A stretch of DNA of 64,000 nt from Minisyncoccota bacterium (GTDB taxonomy: Bacteria > Patescibacteriota > Minisyncoccia > Phycocordibacterales > SW-6-46-9): the NCBI GenBank assembly GCA_040905385.1, contig JBBDRP010000002.1:21337-85336 (forward strand), given 5' to 3'. Shown here one piece after another: positions 11,746 through 47,699 of the stretch (within the stretch, counting starts at the first letter, position 1; each line of letters begins with the position of its first letter). A program made the translations under genes and the position numbers. The notes beneath the pieces were generated by a model. It saw only the letters and a program-made list of their open reading frames with translations. It was not told where the DNA came from and ran no database searches.

Positions 11746-11796
11746 AAAATTATCAAAATCCAAGAGGTGAAAGTTTTTAAGTTCTTTAGCTATTAG

Positions 11797-13875: not shown

Positions 13876-13897
13876 TCATTTAATTAAACAGGAATGG

Positions 13898-14770: not shown

Positions 14771-14790
14771 CTCACTCACGTTGTTCGTTG

Positions 14791-14864
14791 TGCACTCGGA
14801 AGGATTCGAACCCTCAACCTGCTGATCCGAAGTCAGCTGCTCTATCCAGTTGAGCTACGAGTGC
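14791..14864 (-). tRNA. tRNA-Arg (anticodon TCG)
   Basis: GCACTCGTAGCTCAACTGGATAGAGCAGCTGACTTCGGATCAGCAGGTTGAGGGTTCGAATCCTTCCGAGTGCA. Confidence 0.75.
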
Positions 14865-31169: not shown

Positions 31170-31988
31170 GTGAACTCGTCCTATCTACCATCAAAAAAGG
31201 TCTGGATTCTTCTCAGCGTTATTTTGGTAATTACCGTTGGTTTTTTCGTACTTCGTGGTGATGAAAATAATCCATCTATTGTTTCTCAAATAAACGCACG
31301 TATTAGTGGAAATGATATTGAAGGTTCCGGCTTTCTTGGCTTTGGTAGTGACTCTCGTGATACTGAGCGAGCAGAATTTTCCAGCAATAAAACTACCGAG
31401 GCCTGGCAGGATCTCTTTCCGTATATGGCGTCTTACGTATCAGTAAGTGGTGATAAGGAAATCGCCGAAGGTGAGCTAGACCGACTCACCGAAGAGGTGG
31501 CACAAAAAATTCAGGATGAGGAGGTTGAGCTCTACACTGAGTCTGATGTACAGATTATCTCTAACGCTAGCTTTGACGATCTTGATACTTATTTTGAGGA
31601 TATGGTTACGTTCACGGCTGAGTACTACACCAATACCAGCATGGAAGACGAGCTTTTAATATTTGCCCAGGCCTCAGCTGACAATGAAGCTACAGAGGAT
31701 GAACTCAAGGAGCTTAGAGTAATTGCTGATCAATACAAGGCACTGGCCAGTGAGCTGATCCAGCTACCTGTACCGGCTTCTCTGGCCTTGATTCATCTCG
31801 AGATGGTCAACAACTACGTTGGCCTCGGAAATGCTACACGTAATATGTCAACACTACAGACCGATCCCGTTCGCTCGATGGTGGGGCTCGAGAATTACCA
31901 GCAGCTGGCCAATGAGCAAATAATCATCAGTGAAGAGCTCGGTAGGCAGATTGGTCGCCAGGCGCGATTATTAGCCGAATCAGAATAA
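31170..31988 (+). CDS. hypothetical membrane-anchored protein (first gene of T4SS-like operon)
   Basis: N-terminal TM helix (VWILLSVILVITVGFFVL) and an acidic ectodomain. Confidence 0.5.
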   Translation: MNSSYLPSKKVWILLSVILVITVGFFVLRGDENNPSIVSQINARISGNDIEGSGFLGFGSDSRDTERAEFSSNKTTEAWQDLFPYMASYVSVSGDKEIAEGELDRLTEEVAQKIQDEEVELYTESDVQIISNASFDDLDTYFEDMVTFTAEYYTNTSMEDELLIFAQASADNEATEDELKELRVIADQYKALASELIQLPVPASLALIHLEMVNNYVGLGNATRNMSTLQTDPVRSMVGLENYQQLANEQIIISEELGRQIGRQARLLAESE

Positions 31989-31994
31989 TATATT

Positions 31995-34900
31995 ATGCAA
32001 TTTTCAATACTTCAAAAAATCGTTTCAGTCACTATGACAGTAATGTTTATTCTGACCTCTGCCGGATTCGGTATGATGACACCGCGCCAGGCCCAGGCGC
32101 AGGGCATTGTTGATTTTGTAGTTCGCGGTGGGCAAGTACTGGACGGATGTGAGGGTATCACCGGGTCACGCTATCAGGCGATCGCTTCACAGCTGGGTAT
32201 TGATTTAGAAGGTGGAGTCCGAGCTGGTCTTTCTGACCTTGGAAGTAGATTACAAGATCCTGCAAGTGATCTGGGAGGTAGTATTCTTGACGGCCTTTCA
32301 AGTATTGGTGGACAGCTGTCTGACTCTGCTATTGGAGATGCTATTGGATCGCTTGGAAGTACTCTAGGAGATGCTTTTGGCAGTGCGGGAAGCGGAATTG
32401 GAAACGCGATTGGTAGTGTGGCCGGAATACTAGGAGGGCCTGTTGGAGGAATCTTGGGGAGTGTCGTAGGTGGTCTCTTTGGTGGGGGTGGTCCAGATAA
32501 AGTCGTAGAGGAGGGTTTGCGTAAAATTATTCAGCAAGGGCAGCGAATCACTCAGTTTAATCAGTCAAAAATTATTGAAAAGGAGCGTTGTCTTGACTCC
32601 TTGGCTCGCGAGGCTGGTCAGGCCGCTCTGCGTGACTTTACCAACGCCTCAGTCGACTGGCTTAATACAGGGTTCGAACGTGGTGGAGAAACGGGAAATC
32701 AGGCCTTTGTTCAGGATCTAAGCCTCTTTGTTGCTGAGGTGTCCGACAACGAGCTAAGGGAATTTACTGAAGAAGCCGAAAATGAAGGAGGTGGGTTTGC
32801 AAATACGTGCGGCTCCTTTGGACAGTCAGTATTCAGTACCGTAATCAATAATTACTTCCAGGGTACTCCAGAAAGCGGGGTTGATCCAGGTACCGTCAGA
32901 AGTACCATTGTTGCCGATGGTAACTGTCTGGCCTCCGATGCGTTCCTCCGCGGTGATTTCTCTGAAGGTGGCTGGAGTGCACTAGCCCAAAGTGTTTCCA
33001 ATAGCGGGTCCAACCCAATTGGTGCGTATCTTGAACAAAGTAATTCTTTGGATGAACGTATTCGAGAACGTGAGGAGAATGAGCGCGAAGAGCTGCAGTG
33101 GGGACAGGGATTTCTGGCTAATGAAAGTGGTGGATTTACCCCGGCCAGTGTTGTAAACGGTATCAGTAACAGACTTTTCGAAAGTGATTTTAACCGACTC
33201 GAACTCATTGATGAAATGAATGAGGTAGCTGGAAGCTTTGCTAGCTCACTGATCGGAAAGGTAACTGGGTTATCTGATGGAGGCGGTAATGATCCAGAAA
33301 GCGGAACTGGTTTATCGACGCTTGATGGAAGCAATACCGTTGGAGGAGACCAGGCAAGTCCATTTGGCTACCTGGCTGAATCATTATTAAATCGAGTTGA
33401 GGAGCAAGTCGCCATCGAAGAGGATGTCCAGCTAGCAATGGAGGATGTACTACCGTTATATCTGGATGATCGCATTGATCCACTAATAAGTGACGTGCGT
33501 AGTTGTCTAGAAACAGCCGACTTCACCAGTCAGAACATTACTGAGGTACTAAGCAGTGTAATCAATAACAAAGAGCGCTTTGAGAATAATGTACTCCGGA
33601 CACGAGTTCGGATCGACTGGCGTGGCGAGGACCTCTTCTGGCAGGGTGTGATTCGTGAACAGTCACGTAAAATGATCGGCTGGAACGGTACCGATTACAA
33701 CTGGCGTGATGACGGTGTTGAAAGCTACGCGAGACAAGGATTTTCAAATTTATGTGAAACTGATGGAGACTACGGAAATGCCCAGTATGTAATCCGGCAA
33801 GAAATCATCCCCGATCCAGAGAGGACGTTCAGTGGAGCTTTCTTTAGTCTCGAACAAGATGATGCTATTCGTTGGGAGGAGGGTAATTATGAATCTGGTT
33901 TAGATAGTGAAGGAGGAGTGTTGTATTTTGGAAGCCAGTGGATAGGAAGCGGTACGTACGAGAGTCTCGTCGGAAAGAATAATCATCGAACTCCAATATT
34001 CAATGCAGATGACGGCGGTTCTTTCTTTGACTGGCAAGATCTAGTTACGGGACAAACTCCAGCAGCCGTAAATCATAGTAAACCACCACGTGTTCATACT
34101 GTATGGGAAAAGCAGATATGTAGAGATAGTGAATGGCACGCGCAAATAACTAATATGGACCTCGATTTTCCGGATACTCCGGCCGGGCAACGAGATGCCC
34201 AGAACGCCCAGTGTGATCTGATCGGTGAACTTGAGTTTTGTATTTATCCTGCCTACAGATCGCCACGGCTAATCGCTGGAGAGATGTACCAACGAAATGT
34301 TGACGGCGGGGTAGAAGCCTCACAATGTCAATCACGAAGCGACGCTGGTACCCATTACTTTGTTCGCAGCGGTGATGGTGTCTGGAGCACGCGCCAGTGT
34401 AACACTCGCCAATCTCCACAAGGATCTGCTGTGGAGTGGGAAAGTGGTTTCCCTGACTCTACCGTACAAACCGACCGACCGGCGTATGAGACTCGAGATA
34501 CTGATACACCATTAGAAGATCAGCGAGATCTTCTTGTGAGACTCAAAGAGATACAGGCAGAACTTGAGGAAATGGTCGGAAATGATGACACCTCCGACTT
34601 CCAGAAGGTACAAGCAGATTTTTATGCCTTGGAAGATCAATTCAATAACGGTAATACCGCAGATAATCTTCTCAACAATGCCCGTACTTTTGTTGAAAAC
34701 GTTCGTTTGCTCAATGAAGCCCTCCTTGAAACTGATGAGTGTGAGGGTGGCAGCGATGACCTACGACAGTTCGGGACCGGTTTCCTGAATGACAATCCAG
34801 AAAGCGGAAATGATGGAGGAGGAGCACCTGGCCCTCTATCAATTGAATCTTTTGAAGCTAACCGATTATACGAATCTAGTACGTATGTGAGAGTTAGCTG

Positions 34901-35123
34901 GGAATCAAATGCTGAAAGTTGTACTGCTTCGGCCAACCCGAGTAATGCTGTCTGGCAGGGAGAAATAGGTCCAGATGGAGAGACTGCCCTGAACATTTTT
35001 GGAGGTAGTATACTCTCACTAACTTGTGAACGAGAGGGGGAGACAGATGTAAGTAGTAGTGTTGAAGTATTTCCACTGCAAGAACGTGGACGATTAGATC
35101 CACTAGATCCTCAGCTACAGTAG
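31995..35123 (+). CDS. large (1042 aa) secreted protein with Gly/Ser-rich GxxGS repeat region
   Basis: Signal peptide, then degenerate Gly/Ser-rich repeats (e.g. GSILDGLSSIGGQLSDSAIGDAIGSLGSTLGDAFGSAGSGIGNAIGSVAGILGGPVGG) from about residue 64 to 160, then a long Cys-containing domain. Confidence 0.6.
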   Translation: MQFSILQKIVSVTMTVMFILTSAGFGMMTPRQAQAQGIVDFVVRGGQVLDGCEGITGSRYQAIASQLGIDLEGGVRAGLSDLGSRLQDPASDLGGSILDGLSSIGGQLSDSAIGDAIGSLGSTLGDAFGSAGSGIGNAIGSVAGILGGPVGGILGSVVGGLFGGGGPDKVVEEGLRKIIQQGQRITQFNQSKIIEKERCLDSLAREAGQAALRDFTNASVDWLNTGFERGGETGNQAFVQDLSLFVAEVSDNELREFTEEAENEGGGFANTCGSFGQSVFSTVINNYFQGTPESGVDPGTVRSTIVADGNCLASDAFLRGDFSEGGWSALAQSVSNSGSNPIGAYLEQSNSLDERIREREENEREELQWGQGFLANESGGFTPASVVNGISNRLFESDFNRLELIDEMNEVAGSFASSLIGKVTGLSDGGGNDPESGTGLSTLDGSNTVGGDQASPFGYLAESLLNRVEEQVAIEEDVQLAMEDVLPLYLDDRIDPLISDVRSCLETADFTSQNITEVLSSVINNKERFENNVLRTRVRIDWRGEDLFWQGVIREQSRKMIGWNGTDYNWRDDGVESYARQGFSNLCETDGDYGNAQYVIRQEIIPDPERTFSGAFFSLEQDDAIRWEEGNYESGLDSEGGVLYFGSQWIGSGTYESLVGKNNHRTPIFNADDGGSFFDWQDLVTGQTPAAVNHSKPPRVHTVWEKQICRDSEWHAQITNMDLDFPDTPAGQRDAQNAQCDLIGELEFCIYPAYRSPRLIAGEMYQRNVDGGVEASQCQSRSDAGTHYFVRSGDGVWSTRQCNTRQSPQGSAVEWESGFPDSTVQTDRPAYETRDTDTPLEDQRDLLVRLKEIQAELEEMVGNDDTSDFQKVQADFYALEDQFNNGNTADNLLNNARTFVENVRLLNEALLETDECEGGSDDLRQFGTGFLNDNPESGNDGGGAPGPLSIESFEANRLYESSTYVRVSWESNAESCTASANPSNAVWQGEIGPDGETALNIFGGSILSLTCEREGETDVSSSVEVFPLQERGRLDPLDPQLQ

Positions 35124-35233
35124 TTTCTCTAGTAAAAACGATCTGGTAAGAAAATCATTCGTGATGAATGCTGTATGGAGGGTATAATAAACGCGTGAAT
35201 GTCTGCAGTAACCTTGTTATACATAGATAATAT

Positions 35234-37363
35234 ATGGGATTTCTTGATATAACCGTAGGTTGGTTTTTTGCTGAGACCGCTCAGATATTTTTCAATGCGG
35301 TTGCCTGGATTGTTGCCCAGATTGGATATCTCCTGGACTATACTGTTGAAAAGATGGTGCTCGAGATGGCAGAACTGGTAAATGGCATCACAGCAATTGA
35401 CGCACTGTGGTCAACCTTTCGTGATCTGGGAAACATTGTTTTTATTGGGGTGCTCCTCTACATTGCCATTCGTACAATCTTGAATGTTGGAAATAGTTTT
35501 AATACGAAACGCATCCTGGTTCGGCTAGTTATTGTCGCCTTATTTGTTAACTTCAGCCTGTTTGCTAGCAAGGTGGTTATTGATACATCAAACGTCGTTG
35601 CACTACAGTTTTACAACAGTATTCAGGTGGAGGAATGTGGTGAATCGGCCTGTAACATATCGCACTTTTTTGCCGATGTAACCAATATCTCCTCAGTACA
35701 AAGTCCCGAAGCCCTCGAGGCGCTTGAAAACGAAGGTTCCGAAGAAGGGGCCAACTTCAAGATTTTAATTGCTCGGGTTATGGGAATCGTATTCCTGGCA
35801 GTAGTAGGGTTCGTGATGGCGGCAATGGCATTTCTTTTACTTATACGCTTTGGTTTTTTGATACTGCTTATGATCGCTTCGCCGTTGGCTTTTATTGCTT
35901 TTGTTCTGCCTGGAACTTCCGACATGGGACAGAAGTGGCTACACAACCTCTTTAACCAATCATTTTTTGCCCCGATTTTATTTGCCATGGTCTACGTTGT
36001 GGCGGTACTTGGAGCGGAGCTGGCTAATGGTCTTGGTGGCAATGGTGATCTCATGGCCGCCATCTTGGATCCTGACGGGGACAACTACGGTGTTATCCTG
36101 ACATTTGCGCTGATGACCTTCCTGATGGCTTACACGCTCGTGGTTGCCAAGCAGATGGGTGGGTGGGTGACTCAAAAAAGTATGCAAGTTGGGGTAAAGG
36201 CCCGTAACTGGACTGGTGCTAAAGTTGTTGGTGCTACCGCTGCTGGTGTACGAGCAACCGCTGGACGTGGAGGGCAGAAAGCTTCAGAATCAAGAGGGTT
36301 AAAAGATGCAGCAAGTGATGAGAATAGAAATGCAGTGACTAGATTCGGGGCGCGCGCAGCACTCAAATTATCTGACAAAGCTGCTAATAGCAGTTTTGAT
36401 ATGCGTAATACCCGAGCCGGAAAAGCAGCCGGGGTTGATGATGGCAAGCAACGCAGCAGCGGCTTCCGTCAGGTGGTAGAAGAAAAGGCAGAGAAGCGCA
36501 AAGAAGAGAAGGGAATGATCGAGAGACTGTCACCGGAAGAAAAGGCTAAAGTTGAGCGGGCAAAGATAAAACAAGAACAGGCGGACAAGAGTCTGGAAAA
36601 GGCAGAGAAAGAAATAAAAAAGCTAGAAAAGGAAGCAAAAACCAGGTATGAGGATGCAAAAGAAAACGCTCAGGCTCAGTATGATAGAGTTAAAAATACT
36701 GTCGAGGAGGCGCAGCAGCAGACAAATAATGAACTTACTGATGTCACGAATAACCTCAAACAGGTGTCGTCAGCCATCAAAAAACGTGCTGAACTCGGTG
36801 ATAAACTAGCGGCAGCTCGTAGCTCTGGAGATAGACGTCTGGAAGAACGCATAGCAGCTCGCCTTAACGCACTCACAGATGATATTGATGGCGTTTCGAA
36901 CCTTGAGGATCTAGATACAAAGCAGAACGATTTGCAAGACCGAAAAAGTGATCTCGAGAGTCGCAAAGAAACCCTGCAAAGACGCCGTAATACTGTCCAG
37001 AACGCCTACAACGACCGAAAATCGCAAGCACGGAATGTCTACACTGATGAGCGCGATGAACTTAAGACCAAACGAGAAGTCGCAAAGGAATCAACTAAAA
37101 AATTCAAAAAGAAGATGGATAATGTTATTAATGTTGGAAACAAGCGTGGTGAGGGGTTCGTAGAAACCATGCTTGAACAGCAGAGTACGCTGGACAAGAT
37201 AGCTGGCTTCGCCGGGTATAAATTTGACACTACGCAAAGTCGGGCAAATCGCGACTTTGCTCTGGAAAATATTGGTGATATCAAGAGTAAAGACGAGGAC
37301 AGTGCCGGCAGAACAGCGAAAGACCGTGCCTCTAGTAAGCTCCGTAACATATATAACACCTAA
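35234..37363 (+). CDS. VirB6/TrbL-like polytopic membrane protein with long charged coiled-coil C-terminal extension
   Basis: Five or more TM helices over the first ~330 aa, then a K/E/R-rich coiled coil (EKAEKEIKKLEKEAKTRYEDAKENAQAQYDRVK...). Confidence 0.5.
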   Translation: MGFLDITVGWFFAETAQIFFNAVAWIVAQIGYLLDYTVEKMVLEMAELVNGITAIDALWSTFRDLGNIVFIGVLLYIAIRTILNVGNSFNTKRILVRLVIVALFVNFSLFASKVVIDTSNVVALQFYNSIQVEECGESACNISHFFADVTNISSVQSPEALEALENEGSEEGANFKILIARVMGIVFLAVVGFVMAAMAFLLLIRFGFLILLMIASPLAFIAFVLPGTSDMGQKWLHNLFNQSFFAPILFAMVYVVAVLGAELANGLGGNGDLMAAILDPDGDNYGVILTFALMTFLMAYTLVVAKQMGGWVTQKSMQVGVKARNWTGAKVVGATAAGVRATAGRGGQKASESRGLKDAASDENRNAVTRFGARAALKLSDKAANSSFDMRNTRAGKAAGVDDGKQRSSGFRQVVEEKAEKRKEEKGMIERLSPEEKAKVERAKIKQEQADKSLEKAEKEIKKLEKEAKTRYEDAKENAQAQYDRVKNTVEEAQQQTNNELTDVTNNLKQVSSAIKKRAELGDKLAAARSSGDRRLEERIAARLNALTDDIDGVSNLEDLDTKQNDLQDRKSDLESRKETLQRRRNTVQNAYNDRKSQARNVYTDERDELKTKREVAKESTKKFKKKMDNVINVGNKRGEGFVETMLEQQSTLDKIAGFAGYKFDTTQSRANRDFALENIGDIKSKDEDSAGRTAKDRASSKLRNIYNT

Positions 37364-37365
37364 TC

Positions 37366-37782
37366 ATGCAACAAGAAGAAGTTCTACAAAAAGCTAAAAA
37401 GAATCTTCCGGATGAGTACGTCCAAGCTGTTATTGATCTGGAACTACCAAAAAGAATTGATAAAATCAGCGAACAATATCAGTTAAGTGATATTGAGACT
37501 GATATTCTTGATCAAGAAGTAGTGTATCTACTACTCGGAATTACTGACTCACCAACCTTTACCGACCGGTTCGGAGATATTTCTGAACTTGAAAATAACG
37601 TGCTTTTAAAAGTAATCAAATCAGTCACACGAGATATCATCATTCCACTTCAAGAAAAGTTTCAGGGTGACAATGAGGAAAACTCTACCACTAGCATGCC
37701 CGTGCCGCCGCCACCACCAGCCCCGTCAGCCGGCTACGGGGGGACAAGTGATCCGTATCGCGAACCGACCGATGATCGGTAA
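37366..37782 (+). CDS. hypothetical cytoplasmic protein with Pro-rich C-terminus
   Basis: Translationally coupled (2-nt gap); ends PVPPPPPAPSAGYGG. Confidence 0.45.
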   Translation: MQQEEVLQKAKKNLPDEYVQAVIDLELPKRIDKISEQYQLSDIETDILDQEVVYLLLGITDSPTFTDRFGDISELENNVLLKVIKSVTRDIIIPLQEKFQGDNEENSTTSMPVPPPPPAPSAGYGGTSDPYREPTDDR

Positions 37783-37829
37783 CGCGAGCATTAGGTAGAA
37801 GATGGGAGGCTTGCTAAAATAAATACTAG

Positions 37830-38306
37830 ATGCAATTCCACGTTCCACAATTTATTGATGTTGAGGATAAAATCTTTGGGCCACTGTCCTTTAGGCAGTT
37901 TGTGTACCTCATCGGTGGTGCCGGTTTCTGCGTTATTCTGTATGCTCTAATTCCGTACCGGGTTATTTCACTACCATTTATTGCAATAGTCGCTAGTTTC
38001 TCACTTGCATTATCTTTTTATGAGGTTAATGGCAAACCATTTATCTATACCGTCCAGGCCGCCTTTTCGTACATAACTAATTCACACCTCTACCTCTGGC
38101 AGCGAACAGAGCACAAGGATAAATCAAAAAAACAAATCGAGAAGGAGGCAGAAGAAATTCAGCGGGTAGTGGTCAATATGTCTTCGGATCAATCAACTGG
38201 CAGCAGGCTGGCAGACAAGGCCTTCTCGGTTGATGTCGGTGAAGATAACCAGGCAAGTGAGGAGAAAGAGCCAAAACACACGTCACCTAACCGTAGTCCA
38301 AGCTAA
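37830..38306 (+). CDS. VirB3/PrgI-like small membrane protein
   Basis: EDKIFGPLSFRQFVYLIGG followed by two TM helices. Lies immediately upstream of VirB4, the typical arrangement in Gram-positive-type T4SS. Confidence 0.45.
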   Translation: MQFHVPQFIDVEDKIFGPLSFRQFVYLIGGAGFCVILYALIPYRVISLPFIAIVASFSLALSFYEVNGKPFIYTVQAAFSYITNSHLYLWQRTEHKDKSKKQIEKEAEEIQRVVVNMSSDQSTGSRLADKAFSVDVGEDNQASEEKEPKHTSPNRSPS

Positions 38307-38308
38307 TT

Positions 38309-38971
38309 ATGGCAACCGGCAAGAAAAACTCACAGGCCTCTCAGAAATTTGTACCCATCAACGAAATTCGCGACGGTGTAGCCATTCTTGATGACGGCTC
38401 ACTACGAGCAATCCTGATGGCTTCATCGATTAACTTTGCCCTCAAATCACAGGAGGAGCAGCAAGCAGTGCTGATGCAGTTTCAAAACTTTCTCAATTCA
38501 CTTGATTTCAGCGTCCAGTTTCATATTGAGTCACGAAATCTTAACATAAAACCATACCTAGAAAGTCTTAAGAAGGAGTATCAGAAGCAGGATAACGAAC
38601 TAATGAAAACACAGATCAGTGAGTACATAGAGTTTGTGCGCACCTTTACCGAGAATACAAATGTGATGCAGAAAACTTTTTTTGTGGTAATCCCGTACAA
38701 TCGATCTGTCATTTCCAGCTCAGGTGGCATCATGGAATCAATTCAAGGTATGCTAGGGGGAAGAAGTAAAGAAGATAAAGCAACCGCCAAGGAAGAGTCA
38801 TTTCAAGAAGCACACAATCAGTTACGACAGCGAATACAGATCGTCCGTCAAGGACTAGTTCGGACCGGAGTACGCGTTACTCAACTCGGAACCGAGGAGA
38901 ATATTGAGCTCTTCTATCGACTCTTTAATCCCGGTAATCTCGAGCAGAAGATTACCGATAGTAATATATAA
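38309..38971 (+). CDS. VirB4/TrbE-like N-terminal domain fragment (ends at in-frame TAA)
   Basis: FVPINEIRDGVAILDDGSLRAILMASSINFALKSQEEQ follows the VirB4 N-terminal pattern. It is in the same frame as the next ORF. Confidence 0.55.
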   Translation: MATGKKNSQASQKFVPINEIRDGVAILDDGSLRAILMASSINFALKSQEEQQAVLMQFQNFLNSLDFSVQFHIESRNLNIKPYLESLKKEYQKQDNELMKTQISEYIEFVRTFTENTNVMQKTFFVVIPYNRSVISSSGGIMESIQGMLGGRSKEDKATAKEESFQEAHNQLRQRIQIVRQGLVRTGVRVTQLGTEENIELFYRLFNPGNLEQKITDSNI

Positions 38972-38977
38972 TTATTT

Positions 38978-40819
38978 ATGGCGTTATTTGATATTTTTAA
39001 AACTGATAAAAGCAATGAGGATTCACAAATGTCTAATGAGACTGAGCGTGGTGCATTTTTGCCGCATCAGGTTGAGGATACAGGATCGCTTGATCTCAAG
39101 GACGTGATTGCCCCAGCTGCCTTAAAGATAAGTCCACGGCAACTCAACCTTGGTGAAAAGATATCACGGACCTTTTTTGTAATCTCCTACCCAAGCACGC
39201 TTCCTGATAACTGGTTTTCACCAGTGATTAATCTGGATCGACTTTTTGATATATCAATATTTGTTCACCCGGTTGATACCCGTAAAATCCTGCGTCAGTT
39301 TGAGAAACGCGTTGCCGAAGTACAGAGCCAGATCAATATCCGTGAGGAAAAGGGGCTTGTTCGTGATCCAAAGCTTGATAGTGCCCACCAGAACCTTGAG
39401 CAGCTGCGTAACGACCTCCAGCAGGCCAAGGAGAAGATCTTTGATGTCGGGCTGTACATTACCATCTACGGCAAGGATGAGAACGAACTACAGAAGACTG
39501 AGTCCGAGATTCGCTCTGTACTCGAGTCACAGTTGATTTACCTAAAACCAGCCCTGTTCCAGCAGGAGGAAGGATTTCGCTCGACGCTTCCAATCAGCAA
39601 GGACGAGCTGCAGGTTCACTCTAAACTTAACTCATCACCACTCTCAAGCCTCTTTCCATTCGTGTCTTTTGACCTAACTTCTGATACGGGAATTTTGTTT
39701 GGAATTAATCGTCACAACTCCGGACTCGTACTGTTTGATCGCTTTCAGATGGAGAACTACAACTCATTGATATTTGCTACCTCTGGTGCTGGTAAATCCT
39801 ACGCCACGAAGCTGGAAATTCTTCGTAGCTTGATGTTTGATACCAATGTGATCGTTATTGACCCCGAGGACGAGTACCGTTACCTGGCTGAGGCAACCGG
39901 CGGGCGTCACTTTAATATCTCTCTGACCTCCAAACATCACATCAACCCATTTGATCTGCCGAAACCTCGACCAGACGAAAACTTTGGTGACGTGCTACGC
40001 AGTAATATTATCTCGCTGGTTGGATTGTTTCGCTTGATGTTTGATGGCCTTAGCCCAGGTGAGGACTCAATTGTTGATAAAGCTATTGCCGAGACCTATT
40101 CACTAAAGGATATTACATATGAAAGCGAGTGGAGTGAGGATATGCAGGTACCCCTACTTTCAGACTTCGAGATGGTGCTAGGGGGGATGGAAGGGGCAGA
40201 AACACTTGTCGAAAAGCTGCAGAAGTACACCGAGGGTACCTGGGCCGGCTTCCTCAACAAACCCACAAATATCGATATTGAACGTAAGTTCATCGTTTTC
40301 TCGGTACGTGATATGGAAGATGAGCTGAAGCCAATCGCGATGCATATTGTGATGCATCATCTCTGGAATGCTATCCGAAAGAACCTGCGTAAGCGATTGT
40401 TAGTAATTGATGAGGCCTGGTGGATGATGCAGTCTGATGATACGGCCAGCTTCCTGTTTAAGCTGGCAAAGCGAGGGCGTAAGTACTACCTTGGGTTGGC
40501 TACCATCACCCAGGATGTCGGCGACTTTATCAAGTCTCCGTACGGTATGCCGATTGTCAGTAACTCATCCATACAGCTTCTGATGAAGCAGTCACCGTCG
40601 GTTATTGACAAGATTCAGGAAACCTTCAATCTTACCGATGAAGAGAAGTACCTACTACTTGAGTCGGATGTAGGCGAGGGCATCTTCTTTGCTGGACGTA
40701 AGCACGTAGCATTAAAGGTTATTGCTTCGTATACCGAGGATCAGATCATCACCTCGGACCCATCACAACTAATGGACATAGAGCGTAATCGCCAGGAACT
40801 GGAGGATAGAGATGCCTAG
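38978..40819 (+). CDS. VirB4/TrbE-like T4SS ATPase (C-terminal 613 aa)
   Basis: Walker A (FATSGAGKSYATK) and Walker B (LLVIDEAWWMM). Together with the 220-aa piece it makes an ~836-aa VirB4. Confidence 0.75.
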   Translation: MALFDIFKTDKSNEDSQMSNETERGAFLPHQVEDTGSLDLKDVIAPAALKISPRQLNLGEKISRTFFVISYPSTLPDNWFSPVINLDRLFDISIFVHPVDTRKILRQFEKRVAEVQSQINIREEKGLVRDPKLDSAHQNLEQLRNDLQQAKEKIFDVGLYITIYGKDENELQKTESEIRSVLESQLIYLKPALFQQEEGFRSTLPISKDELQVHSKLNSSPLSSLFPFVSFDLTSDTGILFGINRHNSGLVLFDRFQMENYNSLIFATSGAGKSYATKLEILRSLMFDTNVIVIDPEDEYRYLAEATGGRHFNISLTSKHHINPFDLPKPRPDENFGDVLRSNIISLVGLFRLMFDGLSPGEDSIVDKAIAETYSLKDITYESEWSEDMQVPLLSDFEMVLGGMEGAETLVEKLQKYTEGTWAGFLNKPTNIDIERKFIVFSVRDMEDELKPIAMHIVMHHLWNAIRKNLRKRLLVIDEAWWMMQSDDTASFLFKLAKRGRKYYLGLATITQDVGDFIKSPYGMPIVSNSSIQLLMKQSPSVIDKIQETFNLTDEEKYLLLESDVGEGIFFAGRKHVALKVIASYTEDQIITSDPSQLMDIERNRQELEDRDA

Positions 40820-40849
40820 CACATTTACGGTATAATACAGTTACCTCCT

Positions 40850-41314
40850 ATGGATACAGCCAAGTTAAAATCAGCAGTAAAGACAGGGTTGGGCTGGTGG
40901 GCCAAGACCGAAGGCTACCGTGGACACCTGTTTGTTGCCCTTGTTTTCGACCTGCTTTCGATGATTCCGTGGGTGGGAATGATCTTTTCCTTTTTAGGAT
41001 ACGCAATTCTTTGGCTTTGGTTTGAGATGGGCGGAATTAATCCCAGCCTTTTTTCAGGACGAAAGAAGGCGAAGAAAGCGGCTTCTTTTATAAGTGAGTG
41101 GCTATTTGGACTTATTGGTCTGGGAATATTTCCCGGAATCATGATGTGGACCTACTTTGCTGTCAGTGAACACAAGGAAGAACAGGTAGAAAAACAGGAG
41201 GCTACTATGAAGCAGGTCCAGGAAAAGCTTGTTAAGCAATCACAGGAAAGCAACCGACGTATCCAGGAAGTAAATACACATAAACGTCGGGCAAAGACCT
41301 CAGCCTATCAGTAG
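40850..41314 (+). CDS. hypothetical membrane protein
   Basis: Three or four hydrophobic helices and a charged C-terminus. Confidence 0.45.
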   Translation: MDTAKLKSAVKTGLGWWAKTEGYRGHLFVALVFDLLSMIPWVGMIFSFLGYAILWLWFEMGGINPSLFSGRKKAKKAASFISEWLFGLIGLGIFPGIMMWTYFAVSEHKEEQVEKQEATMKQVQEKLVKQSQESNRRIQEVNTHKRRAKTSAYQ

Positions 41315-41317
41315 ATT

Positions 41318-42322
41318 ATGAAAATATTTTTCAATACATTAGTATTCGTTACTATATTTGGACTAGTATTAATTCTAGCTCCAGTGGTAGTTACCGGTCA
41401 ATCAATATTTAGCCCCTCTACTGACACAATCGGCCTTTCCCAGTCACCACGCTTTCCGGAACCAAATGAAACCATTACACTATCAGTGGTCAGTCGAGTT
41501 ATCAATCTAAATAATAAGCAGACGGTGTGGCAGATAGATGGTGAAACAGTTTCGTCTGGAACCGGGGTGCTAGAAATCGATGTCGAGCTTGGTGGTAGCG
41601 GGGAAACAACCCAGGTTGATTTTCGCGTAATTGTTGAAGGTGAGGTCGTGCAGCGTACTGCCAACCTTTCACCAGTTGATGTTAATCTTGTCTGGGAGGC
41701 AATTGAGTCTTATACGCCACCATTTTATGGAGGAAAAGCCCTTAATCCAGGCTGGGGAAAGATTCGTATTACCGCTCTTCCACATGTATACCGAGAGGAT
41801 GGTCAATTGTACGATGCTCAGAATCTTATCTACAAATGGGAGTATAATGGACTTGTGCATGGAGATGATTCCGGTCGCGGTAAGGATTCGTTTTTAATAA
41901 ACACCGTACCACGTCGGGGTAATAGGGTAACAGTAGAGATTGAAACCCTGGATGGAAATATGGTAGCCCGAAGATCTGTCGGATTACCAATAAGCGAACC
42001 GGAGATTGTGCTATATCCGTATAATATCCTGTTTGGGCCGCAAGGAAATCTGGCCTTAGACAACACTCAGGAGCTCAATACTGATGAAGAGATTGAGCTA
42101 ATTGCGTATCCATACTTTTACCTTACAGATAGTGATGTTGCTGACTTTATCGAGTATCATTGGCGGATGAATGGGGAATCATTAACACCACCAGAGGATA
42201 AAAATATCATCCGACTCCGTCGTCAGAGCGGAGTCAGTGGCGAAGCACGTATTGATGTCAGAGTCCAAGATACATCATCCATCTTCTCCACTAAATCAGC
42301 CGGGGTTAATCTTCAATTTTAA
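41318..42322 (+). CDS. hypothetical secreted protein
   Basis: Signal peptide (FFNTLVFVTIFGLVLILAPVVVTG); coupled to flanking genes. Confidence 0.5.
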   Translation: MKIFFNTLVFVTIFGLVLILAPVVVTGQSIFSPSTDTIGLSQSPRFPEPNETITLSVVSRVINLNNKQTVWQIDGETVSSGTGVLEIDVELGGSGETTQVDFRVIVEGEVVQRTANLSPVDVNLVWEAIESYTPPFYGGKALNPGWGKIRITALPHVYREDGQLYDAQNLIYKWEYNGLVHGDDSGRGKDSFLINTVPRRGNRVTVEIETLDGNMVARRSVGLPISEPEIVLYPYNILFGPQGNLALDNTQELNTDEEIELIAYPYFYLTDSDVADFIEYHWRMNGESLTPPEDKNIIRLRRQSGVSGEARIDVRVQDTSSIFSTKSAGVNLQF

Positions 42323-42324
42323 TC

Positions 42325-43287
42325 ATGAAACCTCTTTCACAACTTTTTACCATCATACTCACTACTACTTTAGTATTTTTTCTAATTCTGCCAATGATTG
42401 CTGGTATCGGAACATCCAGCGCAGACATTGAAATACTTCCAGTAGCTGAAGCCCAAGAAGATACTGACTACAAATTCCTTGCCCCGATTGGAGGCTTTGG
42501 GGAAAGCGTCGATGTTACCAGCACATCCAGCTTTACCAACTACATTCAAAATGGGATAACTATCATGATTGGATTTGCCATCATGGCCGCAATTGTACTG
42601 ATTATCGCCGCCGGTTTCCGTTACATGACCAGCGTCTCGCAAAGTGGAGTTAGTCAGGCAAAGAAGACGATGAGTAACGCCATTCTTGGGCTGATTCTAG
42701 CCCTAACCGCCGTACTGATACTCCAGACTATTAACCCTGACCTGGTTGAGCTTAACGCCGTTAAGACCGTCACCACGAGTGGAAGTAGTTTTGATGATCA
42801 CTTACAAACTGGCGGCTTTGAAAGCAGTAATGTAGTTAGTGAATCCATCATCGATGGTCCTGAGGACAGGAGAGGTAATCAGCACTGCTACCGTGTTGAT
42901 GGTGAGTGGGCTGATTGGACGCATGATCGATTCTACTGTTACCACACCGAAGAAAATTGTGAGGATGGTTACAGTGAAGCTCAACAAAGCTATCCTGGAT
43001 CAATAGATCATGGGTGTACTTATTATTATGGATCTGAAGGTACGTTATTTTCTACTGAGTATGGACAATTTAATGAGTTAGAGAGTGGTATAAATGGTGT
43101 ATCTACAGAAAGTGGATTTGCTGCAGTTGAAGATTGTGAGCAGGAAGTAGAGAATATAGCCGTTGGTAAAGATGCAGCAACGCAAGAATATAATTATGAA
43201 CAATGTGTGACATTTTCTGGTGGAATTGAAAGATTCGATACTGATAATTGTTCTATTGTATGTACTGAAGAGGTTGATGAAATATAA
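42325..43287 (+). CDS. VirB2/TrbC pilin-like protein with C-terminal Cys-rich (9 Cys) extension
   Basis: Signal peptide plus two hydrophobic helices separated by a short polar loop (ITIMIGFAIMAAIVLIIAAGFRYM...ILGLILALTAVLILQTI), then a ~150-aa Cys-rich tail. Confidence 0.4.
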   Translation: MKPLSQLFTIILTTTLVFFLILPMIAGIGTSSADIEILPVAEAQEDTDYKFLAPIGGFGESVDVTSTSSFTNYIQNGITIMIGFAIMAAIVLIIAAGFRYMTSVSQSGVSQAKKTMSNAILGLILALTAVLILQTINPDLVELNAVKTVTTSGSSFDDHLQTGGFESSNVVSESIIDGPEDRRGNQHCYRVDGEWADWTHDRFYCYHTEENCEDGYSEAQQSYPGSIDHGCTYYYGSEGTLFSTEYGQFNELESGINGVSTESGFAAVEDCEQEVENIAVGKDAATQEYNYEQCVTFSGGIERFDTDNCSIVCTEEVDEI

Positions 43288-43330
43288 AAAACATAGTTAT
43301 TTTTATCGCTGTTTTTATAATAAATAAGTC

Positions 43331-44569
43331 ATGAAAACCTGGCAGAAAATTACAATTATTCTTCTTATCCTGGCACTAATCGGTATTTTAGTGTTCCTAT
43401 ACTTTTACGGAGCATCAACCACCAACCCAGACGACCCAGACGGCGTTCAGAACCCCGTATTTCCATTTGAACCACCAGTAGGTGATGATGGTGATGATTT
43501 CTTTTCCGGAGACAGTGGTGACCCATCAGATGATGATGAAGAAAATGATCCAGAAGAGAAAGACCGGCTTTGGCGAGTAAGCGACCGTCCAGTAGCTGGT
43601 AGTGGGTGGGTGACACGAGAAGATGGTTCCCAAGCTATCTGGTACGTACTCAAAGAGAATGGTCACGTCTACGAGCATGATATCGAGAATCGTGCGTCTA
43701 CTCGGCTAACGAATACCACTATTCCGCGTGTACAAGAGGCTATTATTAGCCCGAATGGGGAACATGTTATATATCGCTACATCGATATCGAGAGCCGTAA
43801 CATAAAAACCTTTCTTGCGACGACCGAAAGAACTCCTGATGGAGAGACACTGTACAGCATTGACGGTTCATTTCTTCCTGATAACCTCACCGAGGTTAAT
43901 CTCTCACCAGATGGAAATCGTATTTTCAGCTTTCAAAATACAACAGATGGTGTAATTGGTGTGCTTTACAATATCACCACTGATGAAGGAGAGGTTTTTT
44001 TTGATTCGCCACTACAGGAATGGCGTAGTGAATGGAATCATAGTGATCTGATTACGATTTTTACCAAGCCTGCCGCGGGAGTTACTGGAGTTGCCTACCA
44101 GTTAAACACTACTTCAGGTGAAAAAACGAAGATAATTGATGGATCTGCTCTCACCGCCAGCCTGCACCCAAGTAATCAGTATCTTCTGACTGGAAAACAA
44201 GAAAGTGGTAGTTACCGTAGTCGATTGTATGAAATGGATGATCTAACAAGTAATGTAATGTCACCAGCTACACTGGTTGAGAAGTGTAATTGGAGCGATG
44301 ATGAACTATTCTGTGGAATTCCAAATAATCTTCCAAATAAACCATTAAAAGACTGGTATCAAGGAAAAATAAATTTTTCTGACCAACTAGTTTCTTTTCA
44401 TCTAGCCACTCGTAATCAAGATCGCATCTTCACCGAGGAAGAGTTAAACAAAGGGCCTTTCGATATAATTAAAATTAGTCCAGCTAATAATACTGAGCAT
44501 TTAATATTTACAAACCACCGAAATAATGATCTCTGGGCAATTGATCTAGAAAATGATCAAGAAAACTAA
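43331..44569 (+). CDS. hypothetical membrane-anchored protein with D/P-rich linker and repeat (beta-propeller-like) ectodomain
   Basis: TM helix (ITIILLILALIGILVFLYFY), the D/P/E-rich linker beginning NPDDPDG, then a repetitive domain that appears beta-rich. Confidence 0.45.
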   Translation: MKTWQKITIILLILALIGILVFLYFYGASTTNPDDPDGVQNPVFPFEPPVGDDGDDFFSGDSGDPSDDDEENDPEEKDRLWRVSDRPVAGSGWVTREDGSQAIWYVLKENGHVYEHDIENRASTRLTNTTIPRVQEAIISPNGEHVIYRYIDIESRNIKTFLATTERTPDGETLYSIDGSFLPDNLTEVNLSPDGNRIFSFQNTTDGVIGVLYNITTDEGEVFFDSPLQEWRSEWNHSDLITIFTKPAAGVTGVAYQLNTTSGEKTKIIDGSALTASLHPSNQYLLTGKQESGSYRSRLYEMDDLTSNVMSPATLVEKCNWSDDELFCGIPNNLPNKPLKDWYQGKINFSDQLVSFHLATRNQDRIFTEEELNKGPFDIIKISPANNTEHLIFTNHRNNDLWAIDLENDQEN

Positions 44570-45363
44570 TCAGACTCCTTCTTTGATTCTTCCGTAGCAC
44601 TTTCTGTATTAATGACCTTGTTTACGTACACCGTCTGCAGTGCCTGAAAGAGGTTTGAGGTAGCCCAGTAGACCGCGATTACCGCCGGGAGAGAGTAGGA
44701 GATTGCAAACACAACCCCAGGAAGAATGTAGGTCAGCTTTCCACCGATTGTGTCCTTGAACTCATCTATAAATGTTTCTTGACCCTTAGCTGATTTCTCC
44801 TCAGGCTTTTCGTCGCTTTCTGGCTTCTTGTCGGAAAGTTTATTACTTATCCAGCTTTGTAGGTACTGAGAAGCACCGGCAATTGCTGCAAATATAATGC
44901 TTCTTTCTGCTAGATCTGTACCAAGAAAAGTCATGTTCACCATCTCTGGAATCTGCACAAAGCTGTAAATAATATCCATGTTCACCTCCGGTAGTCCACC
45001 GTTAAAGAATACATAATATAAGGCAATAATAATTGGAAACTGAATCAGAATGATCAGAATTCCAGCAAAGGGATTTACGTTGTGCTCGGCGTAGGCCTCC
45101 ATCATTTTCTGCGCCTGCTTCTCTTTATCATCGCCGTATTTTTCCTTAATCTCATCAATGTGCGGCTTTACCTGCTTCATGGTCTGTTGAGTTCGTACAG
45201 ACTTAATAGACAGGGGTAGTAGTATAAATTTAACCGCTAGTGTAATCAAAATAACCGCCAGACCAACACTTCCGCCGGGAATAATATCAATAAAAAACAC
45301 CAATCCGTTATAGATCGGTTCGTACAATATTGTTGAGAAAAATCCTTTAATAGCACTCCACAT
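44566..45363 (-). CDS. yidC: membrane protein insertase YidC (short form)
   Basis: 265 aa, with the conserved TM1 region LPLSIKSVRTQQTMKQVKPHIDEIKEKYGDDKEKQAQKMMEAY. Confidence 0.85.
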   Translation of the reverse strand: MWSAIKGFFSTILYEPIYNGLVFFIDIIPGGSVGLAVILITLAVKFILLPLSIKSVRTQQTMKQVKPHIDEIKEKYGDDKEKQAQKMMEAYAEHNVNPFAGILIILIQFPIIIALYYVFFNGGLPEVNMDIIYSFVQIPEMVNMTFLGTDLAERSIIFAAIAGASQYLQSWISNKLSDKKPESDEKPEEKSAKGQETFIDEFKDTIGGKLTYILPGVVFAISYSLPAVIAVYWATSNLFQALQTVYVNKVINTESATEESKKESD

Positions 45364-47367: not shown

Positions 47368-47699
47368 TTTAATTATATAAGTGTTGATATATCCGTGGAT
47401 AAGTTATGTATAACATTATTATTATGTGTTTATAATCTGTTATATGTTTGTTGTTTTTCCACAATATAAATTGGCTATTAAAAGTTGTGCGAGCTTTTAG
47501 TGTGGTTTTACTATTTGATTAAAAGAATAAATTCATTACTTTAAAAGGCTGTGTGTAGAGGTATGTATTAATTCATACACATAATCCACCACCTTAATAA
47601 TAAATATAGTTTATTTAAATAATAAGTACTTCTTTATTTTATACAGTTGTATATAGATCGGGAGTAGAGAAAAAAAGGTGCTTATGTCACAATAGATGT
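47368..47699 (+). promoter_or_regulatory. candidate oriC (dnaA-dnaN intergenic)
   Basis: CGTGGATAA at 47393 and TTTTCCACA at 47456 (each 1 mismatch), plus TAATCCACC (2 mismatches). A strongly AT-rich stretch at 47590-47660 could act as the DNA unwinding element. Confidence 0.5.

Follow-up and report, generated by a model that had tools for sequence, protein, structure and literature searches.

The 64-kb window analysed here contains an operon of the kind already published beside the replication origin of the ultrasmall CPR/Patescibacteria, and it is a typical Parcubacteria-type example. Its eleven co-directional genes (31170–44569, + strand) probably encode a chromosomal, origin-proximal T4SS of the Patescibacteria-specific monoderm (MPF_FATA) branch, most likely of the Parcubacteria/Paceibacteria type, with a non-conjugative function in a host-dependent lifestyle. 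The same T4SS and gene context have been described in Patescibacteria (PMC12102498), within a literature on Patescibacteria T4SS that spans 2023–2025 and has been reviewed (PMC12857230). Five core T4SS parts are shown by homology of the predicted products: a VirB6/TrbL-like protein (ORF3), PrgI/VirB3 (ORF5), TrsD (ORF6), VirB4 (ORF7), and a pilin (ORF10). The T4SS identity proposed in the first-pass annotation therefore stands, as VirB4 and PrgI score over their family cut-offs and TrsD, VirB6, and the pilin are supported at the family level.

All eleven ORFs lie exactly where they had first been placed, and none overlaps another. From ORF1 to ORF11 the intergenic gaps are 6, 110, 2, 47, 2, 6, 30, 3, 2, and 43 nt; the earlier description of gaps mostly of 2–3 nt and up to 110 nt is right about the 110 nt before the VirB6 gene, but just 4 of the 10 gaps measure 2–3 nt. 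The last gene does converge on yidC (44566–45363, − strand), with which ORF11 shares 4 nt. The co-directional run begins further upstream with uvrD (28207–30120) and ksgA (30345–31139, + strand), followed by ORF1. The ksgA product is a 16S rRNA dimethylase (Pfam RrnaAD, 8.4e-57) and a neighbour of the T4SS, not a part of it; the gene ends 30 nt upstream of ORF1 and is possibly co-transcribed with the operon. It was found in 43 related loci, and ksgA is reported to be enriched near virB4 in Patescibacteria (PMC12102498). The overall order is M23 peptidase, uvrD–ksgA–T4SS–yidC/rnpA–dnaA–dnaN, and the T4SS adjoins the replication origin. The housekeeping genes uvrD, ksgA, yidC, rnpA, dnaA, and dnaN on its two sides bear out the proposed chromosomal location.

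The genes run in the order ksgA, ORF1, ORF2, VirB6, ORF4, PrgI, TrsD, VirB4, small membrane protein, ORF9, pilin, ORF11; this order is colinear in all 80 of the 80 related loci, and is therefore more than chance. VirB6, PrgI, and TrsD are each present in 50 of 50 loci and the pilin in 45 of 54. The large secreted protein and the tails of VirB6 and the pilin, which had been singled out as unusual, are usual in this clade and conserved in the relatives.

ORF7 (38978–40819, 613 aa) is a VirB4 ATPase of the monoderm (MPF_FATA) CD1110 family. It matches NF045971 at 3.6e-108 (362.8 bits against a cut-off of 325; model positions 176–734) and Pfam P-loop_TraG at 3.4e-27, and phmmer relates it to pCF10 PrgJ (1.5e-45) and pSK41 TrsE (8e-34). 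Our genome collection holds 528 relatives, the best 80 of which are 53–82% identical to it. The preceding ORF6 (38309–38971, 220 aa) is of the TrsD type, equivalent to the VirB4 N-terminal domain (NCBIfam TrsD/TraD, 2.5e-9), and an identical product is already annotated with Pfam TraC-like. It aligns to positions 2–123 of the 752-position CD1110 VirB4 model, such that ORF6 and ORF7, both Cys-free, tile one full VirB4 model. The two share a reading frame and are separated by TAA plus 6 nt, and the gene had first been read as a split VirB4. We found that 78/78 related loci encode TrsD and VirB4 separately, with relative frame 0 in 20, 1 in 26, and 2 in 32 of these loci, and plasmid pSK41 carries the same separate trsD–trsE pair. 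The shared frame is thus coincidental, the fission is old and conserved, and the window holds a native TrsD plus VirB4 pair, not a disrupted gene.

ORF3 (35234–37363, 709 aa) is an extended VirB6/TrbL-like polytopic membrane protein with about 6–7 TM segments (residues 16–305) and a charged, Cys-free, coiled-coil-like C-terminal tail of about 400 aa. Like the pilin, the window copy falls just under its Pfam gathering score (TrbL, 8e-5, 22.9 bits against 25.9), and both assignments are supported by tests at the family level. For ORF3 these include NCBIfam CD3337/EF1877 (1.5e-5), an hhalign match to pSK41 TrsL (E 5.4e-4), and TrbL matches in 9 of 40 homologues (best 3.8e-8), with TrbL_4 in one. 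The tails of 61 homologues have a median of 377 aa, with no Cys in 56 of them, and extended VirB6 proteins already form a recognised category (PMC12857230). A crude TM count permits an outside location of the tail, while the positive-inside rule and the lack of Cys favour the inside. ORF4 (37366–37782, 138 aa) is a small cytoplasmic protein of a conserved family, with a Pro-rich C-terminus, no TM segment, and no Cys; 43/50 loci have a profile relative of it between VirB6 and PrgI, and it showed no similarity to pCF10 PrgF, pCF10 PrgG, or the PDB. ORF5 (37830–38306, 158 aa) is a PrgI/VirB3-like protein with two TM segments (24–42 and 45–63) that scores over its cut-off (Pfam PrgI, 8.7e-9, 36.2 bits against 27). 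ORF8 (40850–41314, 154 aa) is a small polytopic membrane protein with 2–3 hydrophobic segments. It has sequence relatives in 2 loci only, and a small ORF (80–220 aa, at least 2 TM segments) directly follows VirB4 in 35/72 loci; ORF8 is conserved in position and divergent in sequence.

ORF10 (42325–43287, 320 aa) is a VirB2-like T4SS pilin and the sole pilin-like ORF in the window. It has a signal peptide, a two-TM hairpin (about 74–136), and an acidic C-terminal extension of about 180 aa, in which we counted 8 Cys (residues 188–313), one fewer than first reported. It matches Pfam T4SS_pilin at 2.4e-5 (24.8 bits, under the gathering cut-off of 26.6), the NCBIfam Mbov_0395 pilin-like family at 1.5e-5, and an HMM of the short pilins of the clade at 2.2e-28, and NCBI names an identical protein 'pilin'. 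Of 81 related pilins, 33 have a tail of 60 aa or more, and the extended tails are mostly Cys-rich. When 36 extended pilins (32 from related loci) were scanned with Pfam, 3 contained Peptidase_M23 and 1 contained SLT. The 180-aa domain may keep ORF10 from polymerising like VirB2; the tail could also be cleaved off.

The remaining four genes probably encode accessory envelope proteins that are conserved in relatives and have no assigned function. ORF1 (31170–31988, GTG start, 272 aa) belongs to a lineage-specific family of membrane-anchored envelope proteins and has one TM segment (residues 10–28) and no Cys. Of the 50 loci whose upstream sequence is long enough, 32 have a relative at the same position by iterated profile search. 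The window copy matched no Pfam family, while 23 of 30 family members contain bacterial TSP3 Ca-binding repeats, the only feature of the family that matched the PDB. ORF2 (31995–35123, 1042 aa) is secreted and 100% identical to the NCBI hypothetical protein WD335_00290. It comprises a signal peptide, a Gly/Ser tract (about 60–165), a conserved all-alpha module (about 180–500), a variable Cys-containing region, and a C-terminal FN3/Ig-like beta-sandwich (about 945–1030) with weak FN3-like matches, and contains 14 Cys. The GxxGS repeat tract described earlier is real as a compositional region but is not a DNA tandem repeat; it is a glycine-zipper-like, lineage-specific insertion. AF2 models reached pLDDT 46 for the whole protein and 60 for the module, which is all helical and in this model had no Foldseek match in the PDB or BFVD. 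The family, unannotated, comprises 5,968 clusters at E<=1e-3 with no informative Pfam domain. It lies upstream of VirB6 in 27/50 loci and, conversely, all three members checked, selected among the homologues because their contigs are long, share the T4SS context. ORF9 (41318–42322, 334 aa) is N-terminally anchored or secreted (hydrophobic residues 7–25) and probably consists of tandem Ig/PKD-like beta-sandwich domains: family members match BiPBP_C and PKD domains, and its profile matches phage T4 Hoc weakly (E 0.0095). It lies downstream of VirB4 in 21/54 loci. ORF11 (43331–44569, 412 aa; in 32/54 loci) has an N-terminal TM anchor (7–25), an acidic low-complexity linker (about 30–80), and a TolB-like (PD40-type) beta-propeller with a conserved Cys319/Cys328 pair. 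The family profile matches TolB chains (5.5e-10) and designed propellers (1e-13), and members match DPPIV_N, PD40, and DUF5050.

Inside the operon we found no VirB8-like or VirB1-like gene. A divergent gene upstream of uvrD (26646–27713, − strand) encodes an M23 peptidase with two LysM domains (Pfam Peptidase_M23 1.4e-31, LysM 3.9e-24), and from its position we tentatively suggest a VirB1-type cell-wall hydrolase partner. In 9 loci a relative precedes the T4SS, likewise on the − strand, and in one locus (L084) a Pfam-identified M23 gene occupies the same position.

These parts suggest how the machine might work. VirB6, VirB3, TrsD, VirB4, and ORF8 would form the membrane translocon and motor, with the charged, Cys-free VirB6 tail and ORF4 in the cytoplasm, where, as the vicinity encodes no coupling protein, they may take on the docking of substrates. 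The pilin would form a filament or stalk with its Cys-rich domain facing outward, at the position taken by M23 or SLT cell-wall hydrolase domains in related loci. ORF1, ORF2, ORF9, and ORF11 would be lineage-specific envelope proteins that stand in for the outer components of classical systems and serve in crossing the wall or contacting the host. The Cys pattern fits this topology, with 14 in ORF2, 8 in the pilin tail, and the conserved pair in ORF11, and none in ORF4, ORF6, ORF7, or the VirB6 tail. The extracellular-type folds (TolB-like ORF11, Ig/PKD-like ORF9, the FN3-like ORF2 C-terminus, and TSP3 in ORF1 relatives) support the envelope role. The T4SS would move macromolecules between cell and host, serving the host-dependent lifestyle. 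The first-pass terms 'translationally coupled' and 'effector/contact system' say too much for the present evidence and are to be read as inferences.

The informatively named VirB4 relatives all belong to Parcubacteria-group lineages, a class-level placement made by named neighbours and not by a tree. A saccharibacterial identity of the organism is not supported, and the gene set also differs from that of the Saccharibacteria (Southlakia) T4SS cluster, which is essential for epibiotic growth (PMC10633639). Many VirB4 neighbours are labelled 'uncultured Candidatus Saccharibacteria'; these labels are unreliable.

The T4SS filament could instead reach or pierce the host and import macromolecules (RNA, DNA, nucleotides), much as the archaeal Ced and Helicobacter ComB DNA importers are also based on VirB4-type ATPases, but we consider this unlikely. 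Two archaeal DNA-import ATPases, CedB (1.8e-11) and CedD (3.7e-5), match part of ORF7 weakly, but the CedB match is confined to some 70 residues of the common ATPase fold and scores 43 bits against a family cut-off of 700, and no component specific to Ced or ComB turned up. In a study whose reference set included archaeal DNA importers, 37 Patescibacteria VirB4s outside the main clade clustered with archaeal homologues (PMC12102498); we placed the window VirB4 by named neighbours, not on a tree. The pilin-fused hydrolase domains of related loci fit wall breaching, and a 2026 preprint describes tubes, possibly T4SS pili, at a parasite–host interface together with host RNA uptake (10.64898/2026.06.21.733656), but itself calls the uptake mechanism unresolved. 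Furthermore, Southlakia competence needs ComEC, which is dispensable for viability, whereas the T4SS is essential (PMC12857230).

Still less probably, the operon serves active conjugation or DNA export, with relaxase, oriT, and coupling-protein gene located in other parts of the genome. The core derives from monoderm conjugation machinery, we examined 64 kb of a 784-kb contig, and 2,918 of 3,035 Patescibacteria genomes encode VirD4-like homologues, usually at a distance from virB4; relaxases, however, occur in only 103 of the 3,035 and rarely near virB4, and in Southlakia the distant coupling-protein gene is dispensable but the T4SS genes are essential (PMC12102498). As first proposed, none of the 32 ORFs outside the operon that we scanned with Pfam (E<=0.01 in one scan, E<=1e-5 in the others) matched a relaxase, a VirD4-type coupling protein, or an integrase; the four ORFs left out, of 153–236 aa, are too short to encode VirD4 or a relaxase of typical size. 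Beyond the window, a gene for either protein could still be present. The locus is fixed beside ksgA and dnaA across the 80 loci, and with neither a relaxase nor mobile-element genes among the ORFs scanned it probably does not encode conjugation machinery, in agreement with the published non-conjugative reading of Patescibacteria T4SS (PMC12102498, PMC10633639) and with the first-pass annotation. An integrated conjugative element in decay, its VirB4 broken by an in-frame stop codon, would account for the single frame and joint model coverage of ORF6 and ORF7, but is scarcely credible, being contradicted by the absence of integrase or repeat hallmarks, the conserved separation of the two genes in varying frames, the intactness of all eleven ORFs, and their colinearity in every related locus.

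We found all eleven plus-strand ORFs at 31170–44569 (ORF1–ORF11), as the first-pass annotation had described. The intergenic gaps from ORF1 to ORF11 are 6, 110, 2, 47, 2, 6, 30, 3, 2, and 43 nt, and the short gaps suggest translational coupling of the operon genes. The last gene does converge on yidC, with a 4-nt overlap between yidC and ORF11. The true start of the co-directional run lies further upstream, at uvrD and ksgA, the latter ending 30 nt before ORF1. Promoter and terminator scans performed no better than on shuffled sequence.

Homology searches place the VirB4, VirB6, and VirB3-like genes in type IV secretion (T4SS) families and not in unrelated ones. ORF7 is a VirB4 ATPase of the monoderm CD1110/MPF_FATA type (NF045971 362.8 bits against a cut-off of 325; P-loop_TraG 3.4e-27), and ORF6 corresponds to the N-terminal domain of VirB4, encoded separately as TrsD (TrsD/TraD family 2.5e-9). 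The two tile a single VirB4 model, ORF6 covering positions 2–123 and ORF7 positions 176–734. TrsD is the most abundant T4SS component detected in Patescibacteria and mostly adjoins virB4 (PMC12102498). ORF5 is PrgI/VirB3 (Pfam 36.2 bits, above the cut-off of 27). ORF3, the VirB6/TrbL protein, scores slightly under the Pfam cut-off (22.9 against 25.9 bits); TrbL is matched by 9/40 of its homologues (Pfam, best 3.8e-8), and its profile aligns with pSK41 TrsL across the conserved R..SP..LP..WW segment (hhalign 5.4e-4). ORF10, the VirB2-like pilin, likewise falls slightly under the PF18895 cut-off (24.8 against 26.6 bits) and matches an HMM made from the short pilins of the clade at 2.2e-28. PF18895 is matched by 25 of 36 extended pilin relatives of ORF10, and the NCBI product name of a protein identical to ORF10 is 'pilin'. 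A pilin HMM search of the window ORFs identified ORF10 as the sole pilin; a weak match at 25629–26057 on the minus strand (0.0012) is a single-TM protein and was rejected as a second one.

The best 80 of 528 VirB4 relatives show 53–82% identity and are almost all from CPR MAGs. The VirB4 proteins of pCF10 and pSK41 are far more distant from ORF7 (1.5e-45 and 8e-34, respectively). The named relatives among these best 80 (Parcubacteria group, Spechtbacteria, Nealsonbacteria, Portnoybacteria, Moraniibacteria, Yanofskybacteria, and Staskawiczbacteria) all belong to Parcubacteria-group lineages, and a Saccharibacteria origin is unsupported. NCBI lists proteins identical to ORF2 and ORF10 under 'Candidatus Paceibacterota bacterium', a name that its present taxonomy treats as a mere synonym at phylum level. 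Other MAGs carry the labels 'uncultured Candidatus Saccharibacteria', 'uncultured Bdellovibrionales', and 'Candidatus Pacearchaeota archaeon', and their T4SS loci are Parcubacteria-like; the Saccharibacteria labels are untrustworthy because the Bdellovibrionales and Pacearchaeota labels occur at the same identity levels. From the Parcubacteria-group relatives and a gene set unlike that of the Saccharibacteria reference, we infer that the source is a Parcubacteria/Paceibacteria-type organism.

The eleven proteins were compared with the ORFs of the 80 loci around these VirB4 relatives by phmmer and iterated profiles, and the gene order is colinear in 80/80. Occupancy was counted as loci with the gene over loci with enough flanking sequence. 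VirB6, PrgI, and TrsD are each present in 50/50 loci, followed by ORF4 (43/50), the pilin (45/54), ORF1 (32/50), ORF11 (32/54), ORF2 (27/50), and ORF9 (21/54), and a small ORF with at least two TM segments directly follows VirB4 in 35/72. KsgA lies upstream of the T4SS in 43 related loci, and the yidC/dnaA flank is missing from some. The reverse test gave the same picture: all three ORF2-family members checked, taken from the homologue search, sit in the same context, flanked by an ORF1-like gene with TSP3 repeats and a VirB6-like gene of 760–1194 aa, with PrgI–TrsD–VirB4 downstream and uvrD–ksgA upstream. Five related loci (L019, L032, L033, L038, and L047; ~14.6–18.8 kb in locus coordinates) carry two to three consecutive minus-strand genes of 400–480 aa with at least eight TM segments, which follow the ORF11 homologue, ahead of yidC in the loci that have it, and are absent from the window.

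The operon is flanked by housekeeping genes, not by mobile-element genes. Upstream are an M23/LysM peptidase gene (minus strand), uvrD, and ksgA, and downstream are yidC, a small ORF with rnpA-like relatives, dnaA, and dnaN. The rest of the scanned window is also housekeeping (tpiA, nusA, ppa, tig, clpP, RNase Y, CCA-adding enzyme, ruvABC-type genes, tyrS/trpS-type synthetase, polA, PBP1-type synthase, and PilB-type ATPase). A Pfam scan of 32 window ORFs outside the operon found no relaxase, VirD4/TcpA coupling protein, or integrase, in agreement with the first-pass annotation. The locus comprises a complete set of inner-membrane T4SS core genes and a pilin at a conserved housekeeping site, with no DNA-processing genes nearby. 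Within the operon, the 11 ORFs gave no Pfam or NCBIfam match to a VirB1-type hydrolase or a VirB8-like (NTF2-fold) protein. The M23 peptidase (26646–27713, minus strand) has two LysM domains and lies divergently upstream of uvrD–ksgA–T4SS. In 9 related loci its sequence relatives occupy the minus strand on the upstream side of the T4SS, and in L084 a Pfam-detected M23 gene takes that place; this kept position makes the peptidase a candidate that may serve the T4SS as a VirB1-type wall hydrolase.

At the level of sequence, the T4SS and its context match the published Patescibacteria T4SS exactly. These systems are nested in the monoderm MPF_FATA class, usually lack a relaxase, and are enriched by dnaA, dnaN, ksgA, rnpA, and rpmH, above all in the Paceibacteria and the Microgenomatia (Quinonero-Coronel et al. 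2025, Microb Genom, PMC12102498). They have the same VirB4 of MPF_FATA ancestry with an adjoining TrsD, share PrgI/VirB3, VirB6, and a PF18895-type VirB2-like pilin with the window, likewise have no relaxase or coupling protein nearby, and occupy a chromosomal site by dnaA, dnaN, ksgA, and rnpA. We found no core difference between them and the window operon. Genes with no NCBIfam, Pfam, or TIGRFAM match stay uncoloured in the synteny figure of that study, whereas ORF1, ORF2, ORF4, ORF9, and ORF11 are here resolved as conserved families with predicted folds or topologies.

The only such system with functional data is SEML1_0006–0019 of Southlakia epibionticum ML1, in which most genes of the cluster were scored as essential to epibiotic growth (Wang et al. 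2023, Cell, PMC10633639); a 2025 review also highlights the pilins and the essentiality of Patescibacteria T4SS (PMC12857230). The Southlakia cluster is also chromosomal and origin-proximal, shares VirB4, a TrsD-like gene, PrgI, extended VirB6-like proteins, and PF18895 pilins with the window, and again has no recognisable relaxase or coupling protein. The gene set of this Saccharibacteria reference differs from that of the window. Southlakia has lysozyme and peptidase genes beside virB4, an NTF2-like protein, two VirB6-like proteins of ~1,000 aa, and six short pilins of 126–138 aa, whereas the window has a single VirB6 and a single, extended pilin, and its operon contains no recognised hydrolase. 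Counterparts of ORF1, ORF2, ORF9, and ORF11 are not apparent in the portion of the Southlakia annotation covered.

ORF2, the giant secreted protein, belongs to a large family. The GxxGS repeat tract ascribed to it on first inspection is indeed Gly/Ser-rich, but it is compositional and glycine-zipper-like, with no tandem repeat at the DNA level, and it is an insertion limited to close relatives. The conserved part is a ~320-aa module at residues about 180–500, which no Pfam family covers. A full HMMER scan assigned 5,968 clusters to the family at E ≤ 1e-3 and 3,364 at E ≤ 1e-30. The word-index homologue searches retrieved 8 homologues for ORF2 and 6 for ORF10, which limits alignment depth. The AF2 model of full-length ORF2 is poor (pLDDT 46); the module is modelled as all-helical with moderate confidence (pLDDT 60). 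Foldseek found nothing matching the module in PDB or BFVD, and the ORF2 profile has no match in PDB. The C-terminus is modelled as an FN3/Ig-like sandwich. ORF2 contains 14 Cys. Extra domains in the family are occasional Ig-like domains only, plus PG_binding in 2/27 members, which is insufficient to call ORF2 a hydrolase.

In ORF11, an acidic linker joins an N-terminal TM anchor to a TolB-like PD40 β-propeller (family profile against the TolB propeller 5.5e-10), and its family members match PD40 and DPPIV_N. The propeller alone matches TolB of the Tol–Pal system; the TM anchor and acidic linker stand in place of the TolB N-terminal domain, and no tol/pal genes were found among the window ORFs scanned. 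The likeness is limited to the fold, and hence ORF11 is not a Tol–Pal member. ORF9 probably contains tandem Ig/PKD-like domains. An Ig-like module of this type also forms the C-terminus of larger proteins of 727–999 aa in three related loci (L044:12349–20487, L050:12207–20961, and L051:10382–13057), as many as three of which lie in tandem after VirB4. Most ORF1 relatives have bacterial TSP3 calcium-binding repeats, and these are absent from the window ORF1. ORF4 shows no similarity to PrgF or PrgG and was rejected as either. Profiles of the accessory families gave no match at E ≤ 1 to the ORFs of pCF10 and pSK41.

The first-pass annotation had regarded the VirB6 tail, the Cys-rich pilin tail, and the giant secreted protein as unusual, but all three have widespread counterparts in the related loci. 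ORF3 has about 6–7 hydrophobic segments up to residue 305, followed by a tail of ~400 aa that is K/E/R/D-rich, Cys-free, and coiled-coil-like, with no family match. A hydrophilic C-terminal tail is present in 61/61 VirB6 homologues (median 377 aa, ~29% charged) and is Cys-free in 56 of the 61. Extended VirB6 proteins, with at least five hydrophobic helices and a large hydrophilic central or C-proximal domain, are a recognised category (PMC12857230), and ORF3 resembles them in helix number and in its large C-terminal hydrophilic tail. The tail is a clade trait and fits the extended VirB6 category.

The pilin tail of ORF10 has 8 Cys rather than the 9 first counted. At least 60 aa follow the pilin domain in 33/81 pilin ORFs (57 loci), and 27 of these 33 extended pilins contain at least four Cys; the extremes are 953 aa and 63 Cys. 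When 36 extended pilins, 32 of them from related loci, were scanned against Pfam, 3 showed a C-terminal Peptidase_M23 domain (best 8.7e-22) and 1 an SLT domain. The pilin–M23 fusions are at L014:12307–13920 (plus strand), L012:4102–5712, and L078:11797–13581; in the first, a Cys-rich linker connects the pilin hairpin to an M23 domain at residues 412–505. VirB2-type pilins have both termini on the outer side of the membrane, and by this analogy the ORF10 tail is most likely an exodomain. No mention of extended pilin tails was located in the sections of PMC12102498 covered, nor any description of pilin–hydrolase fusions in the portion of the Patescibacteria T4SS literature covered.

In the mechanism that we propose, the translocon and motor would consist of VirB6, VirB3, TrsD, VirB4, and ORF8. 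The VirB6 tail, which lacks Cys, would be cytoplasmic, as would ORF4, and the two may stand in for a coupling protein. The extracellular part, crossing the wall and contacting the host, would be built from the pilin together with ORF1, ORF2, ORF9, and ORF11, which are Cys-containing or β-rich. That the machine imports rather than exports is doubtful. A 2026 preprint on a cultivated relative (10.64898/2026.06.21.733656) describes tubular structures at the interface with the host that may be T4SS pili, as well as uptake of host RNA, but the preprint itself leaves the mechanism of RNA uptake unresolved. A more elaborate joint reading, which we regard as a long shot, would make the Parcubacteria-type T4SS a feeding organelle that pierces the host and has a novel extracellular architecture, importing host macromolecules such as RNA and not exporting DNA. 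The VirB2-like hairpin would then be a carrier for variable exodomains along or at the tip of the filament (Cys-rich here, M23/SLT wall hydrolases in relatives), a monoderm-specific outer assembly would be made up of ORF1, the ~6,000-cluster ORF2 family, the Ig-like ORF9, and the TolB-like propeller, and the VirB6 tail would replace the coupling protein.

True conjugation is very unlikely, even though two conjugative plasmid systems share much of the core. The staphylococcal pSK41/pGO1 Trs system (MPF_FATA subclass) also has separate TrsD and TrsE (VirB4) genes preceded by a VirB3-like gene, and pSK41 has a TrbL-family VirB6 (TrsL) and a small CagC/VirB2-like TrsB, as in the window. It differs in being a plasmid with a relaxase, VirD4 (TrsK), a CHAP hydrolase (TrsG), topoisomerase, and SSB. 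In enterococcal pCF10 (Prg/Pcf), PrgI, PrgJ (VirB4, CD1110 family), and PrgH (VirB6) lie in matching relative order, but the VirB4 is fused and full-length, there is no pilin, and the plasmid also has the PrgK hydrolase, the VirB8-like PrgL, the coupling protein PcfC, and the relaxase PcfG. The hallmark of conjugative MPF_FATA systems and ICEs, a relaxase with a VirD4/TcpA-type coupling protein, was not found in the scanned ORFs of the 64-kb window.

A decaying element is excluded. ORF6 and ORF7 are in the same frame at 38969–38980 with only TAA and 6 nt between them, which resembles a nonsense mutation, and VirB4 had been annotated as split. TrsD and VirB4 are nevertheless separate ORFs in 78/78 related loci, in relative frames 0, 1, and 2 in 20, 26, and 32 of them, and we reject pseudogenisation by the stop codon. 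Since all three frames occur, the shared frame of ORF6 and ORF7 is coincidental.

Earlier publications already describe the system and its context, the pairing of TrsD with VirB4, the pilins, and the lack of a relaxase, and the window adds no new system. It provides a clean Parcubacteria-type reference locus for a T4SS that is essential in the sole species tested and that ~80% of the genomes in a very large bacterial radiation carry. The genes around the core are conserved families (a ~6,000-cluster all-α secreted family, a TolB-like anchored propeller, an Ig/PKD-like family, and a small cytoplasmic one), and large Cys-rich or hydrolase-bearing C-terminal pilin domains are common in the clade. 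In the part of the Patescibacteria T4SS literature covered, we found no account of the conservation of the unannotated accessory genes as families, of how large the ORF2 family is, or of how often pilins carry such tails. These three points are useful leads, not surprises, and the accessory families and tailed pilins offer concrete targets for structural and genetic studies of host engagement by ultrasmall cells.

Elsewhere in the window, a 4.5-kb stretch at 10273–14850 has no ORF of at least 150 aa and contains four tRNA genes (10833–10903, minus; 11797–11870, minus; 12782–12852, plus; and 14791–14864, minus), with no other Rfam family at threshold. The dnaA–dnaN region at 46001–48000 has 33% G+C against ~45% in the remaining window, and the cumulative GC skew climbs over the entire window with no sign change at dnaA. 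A PilB/T2SSE-type ATPase gene (56284–57981, minus strand; Pfam T2SSE 1.4e-114), located ~12 kb beyond the T4SS on its downstream side, belongs to a type IV pilus or a type II secretion system, the other surface machinery implicated in the Patescibacteria lifestyle.
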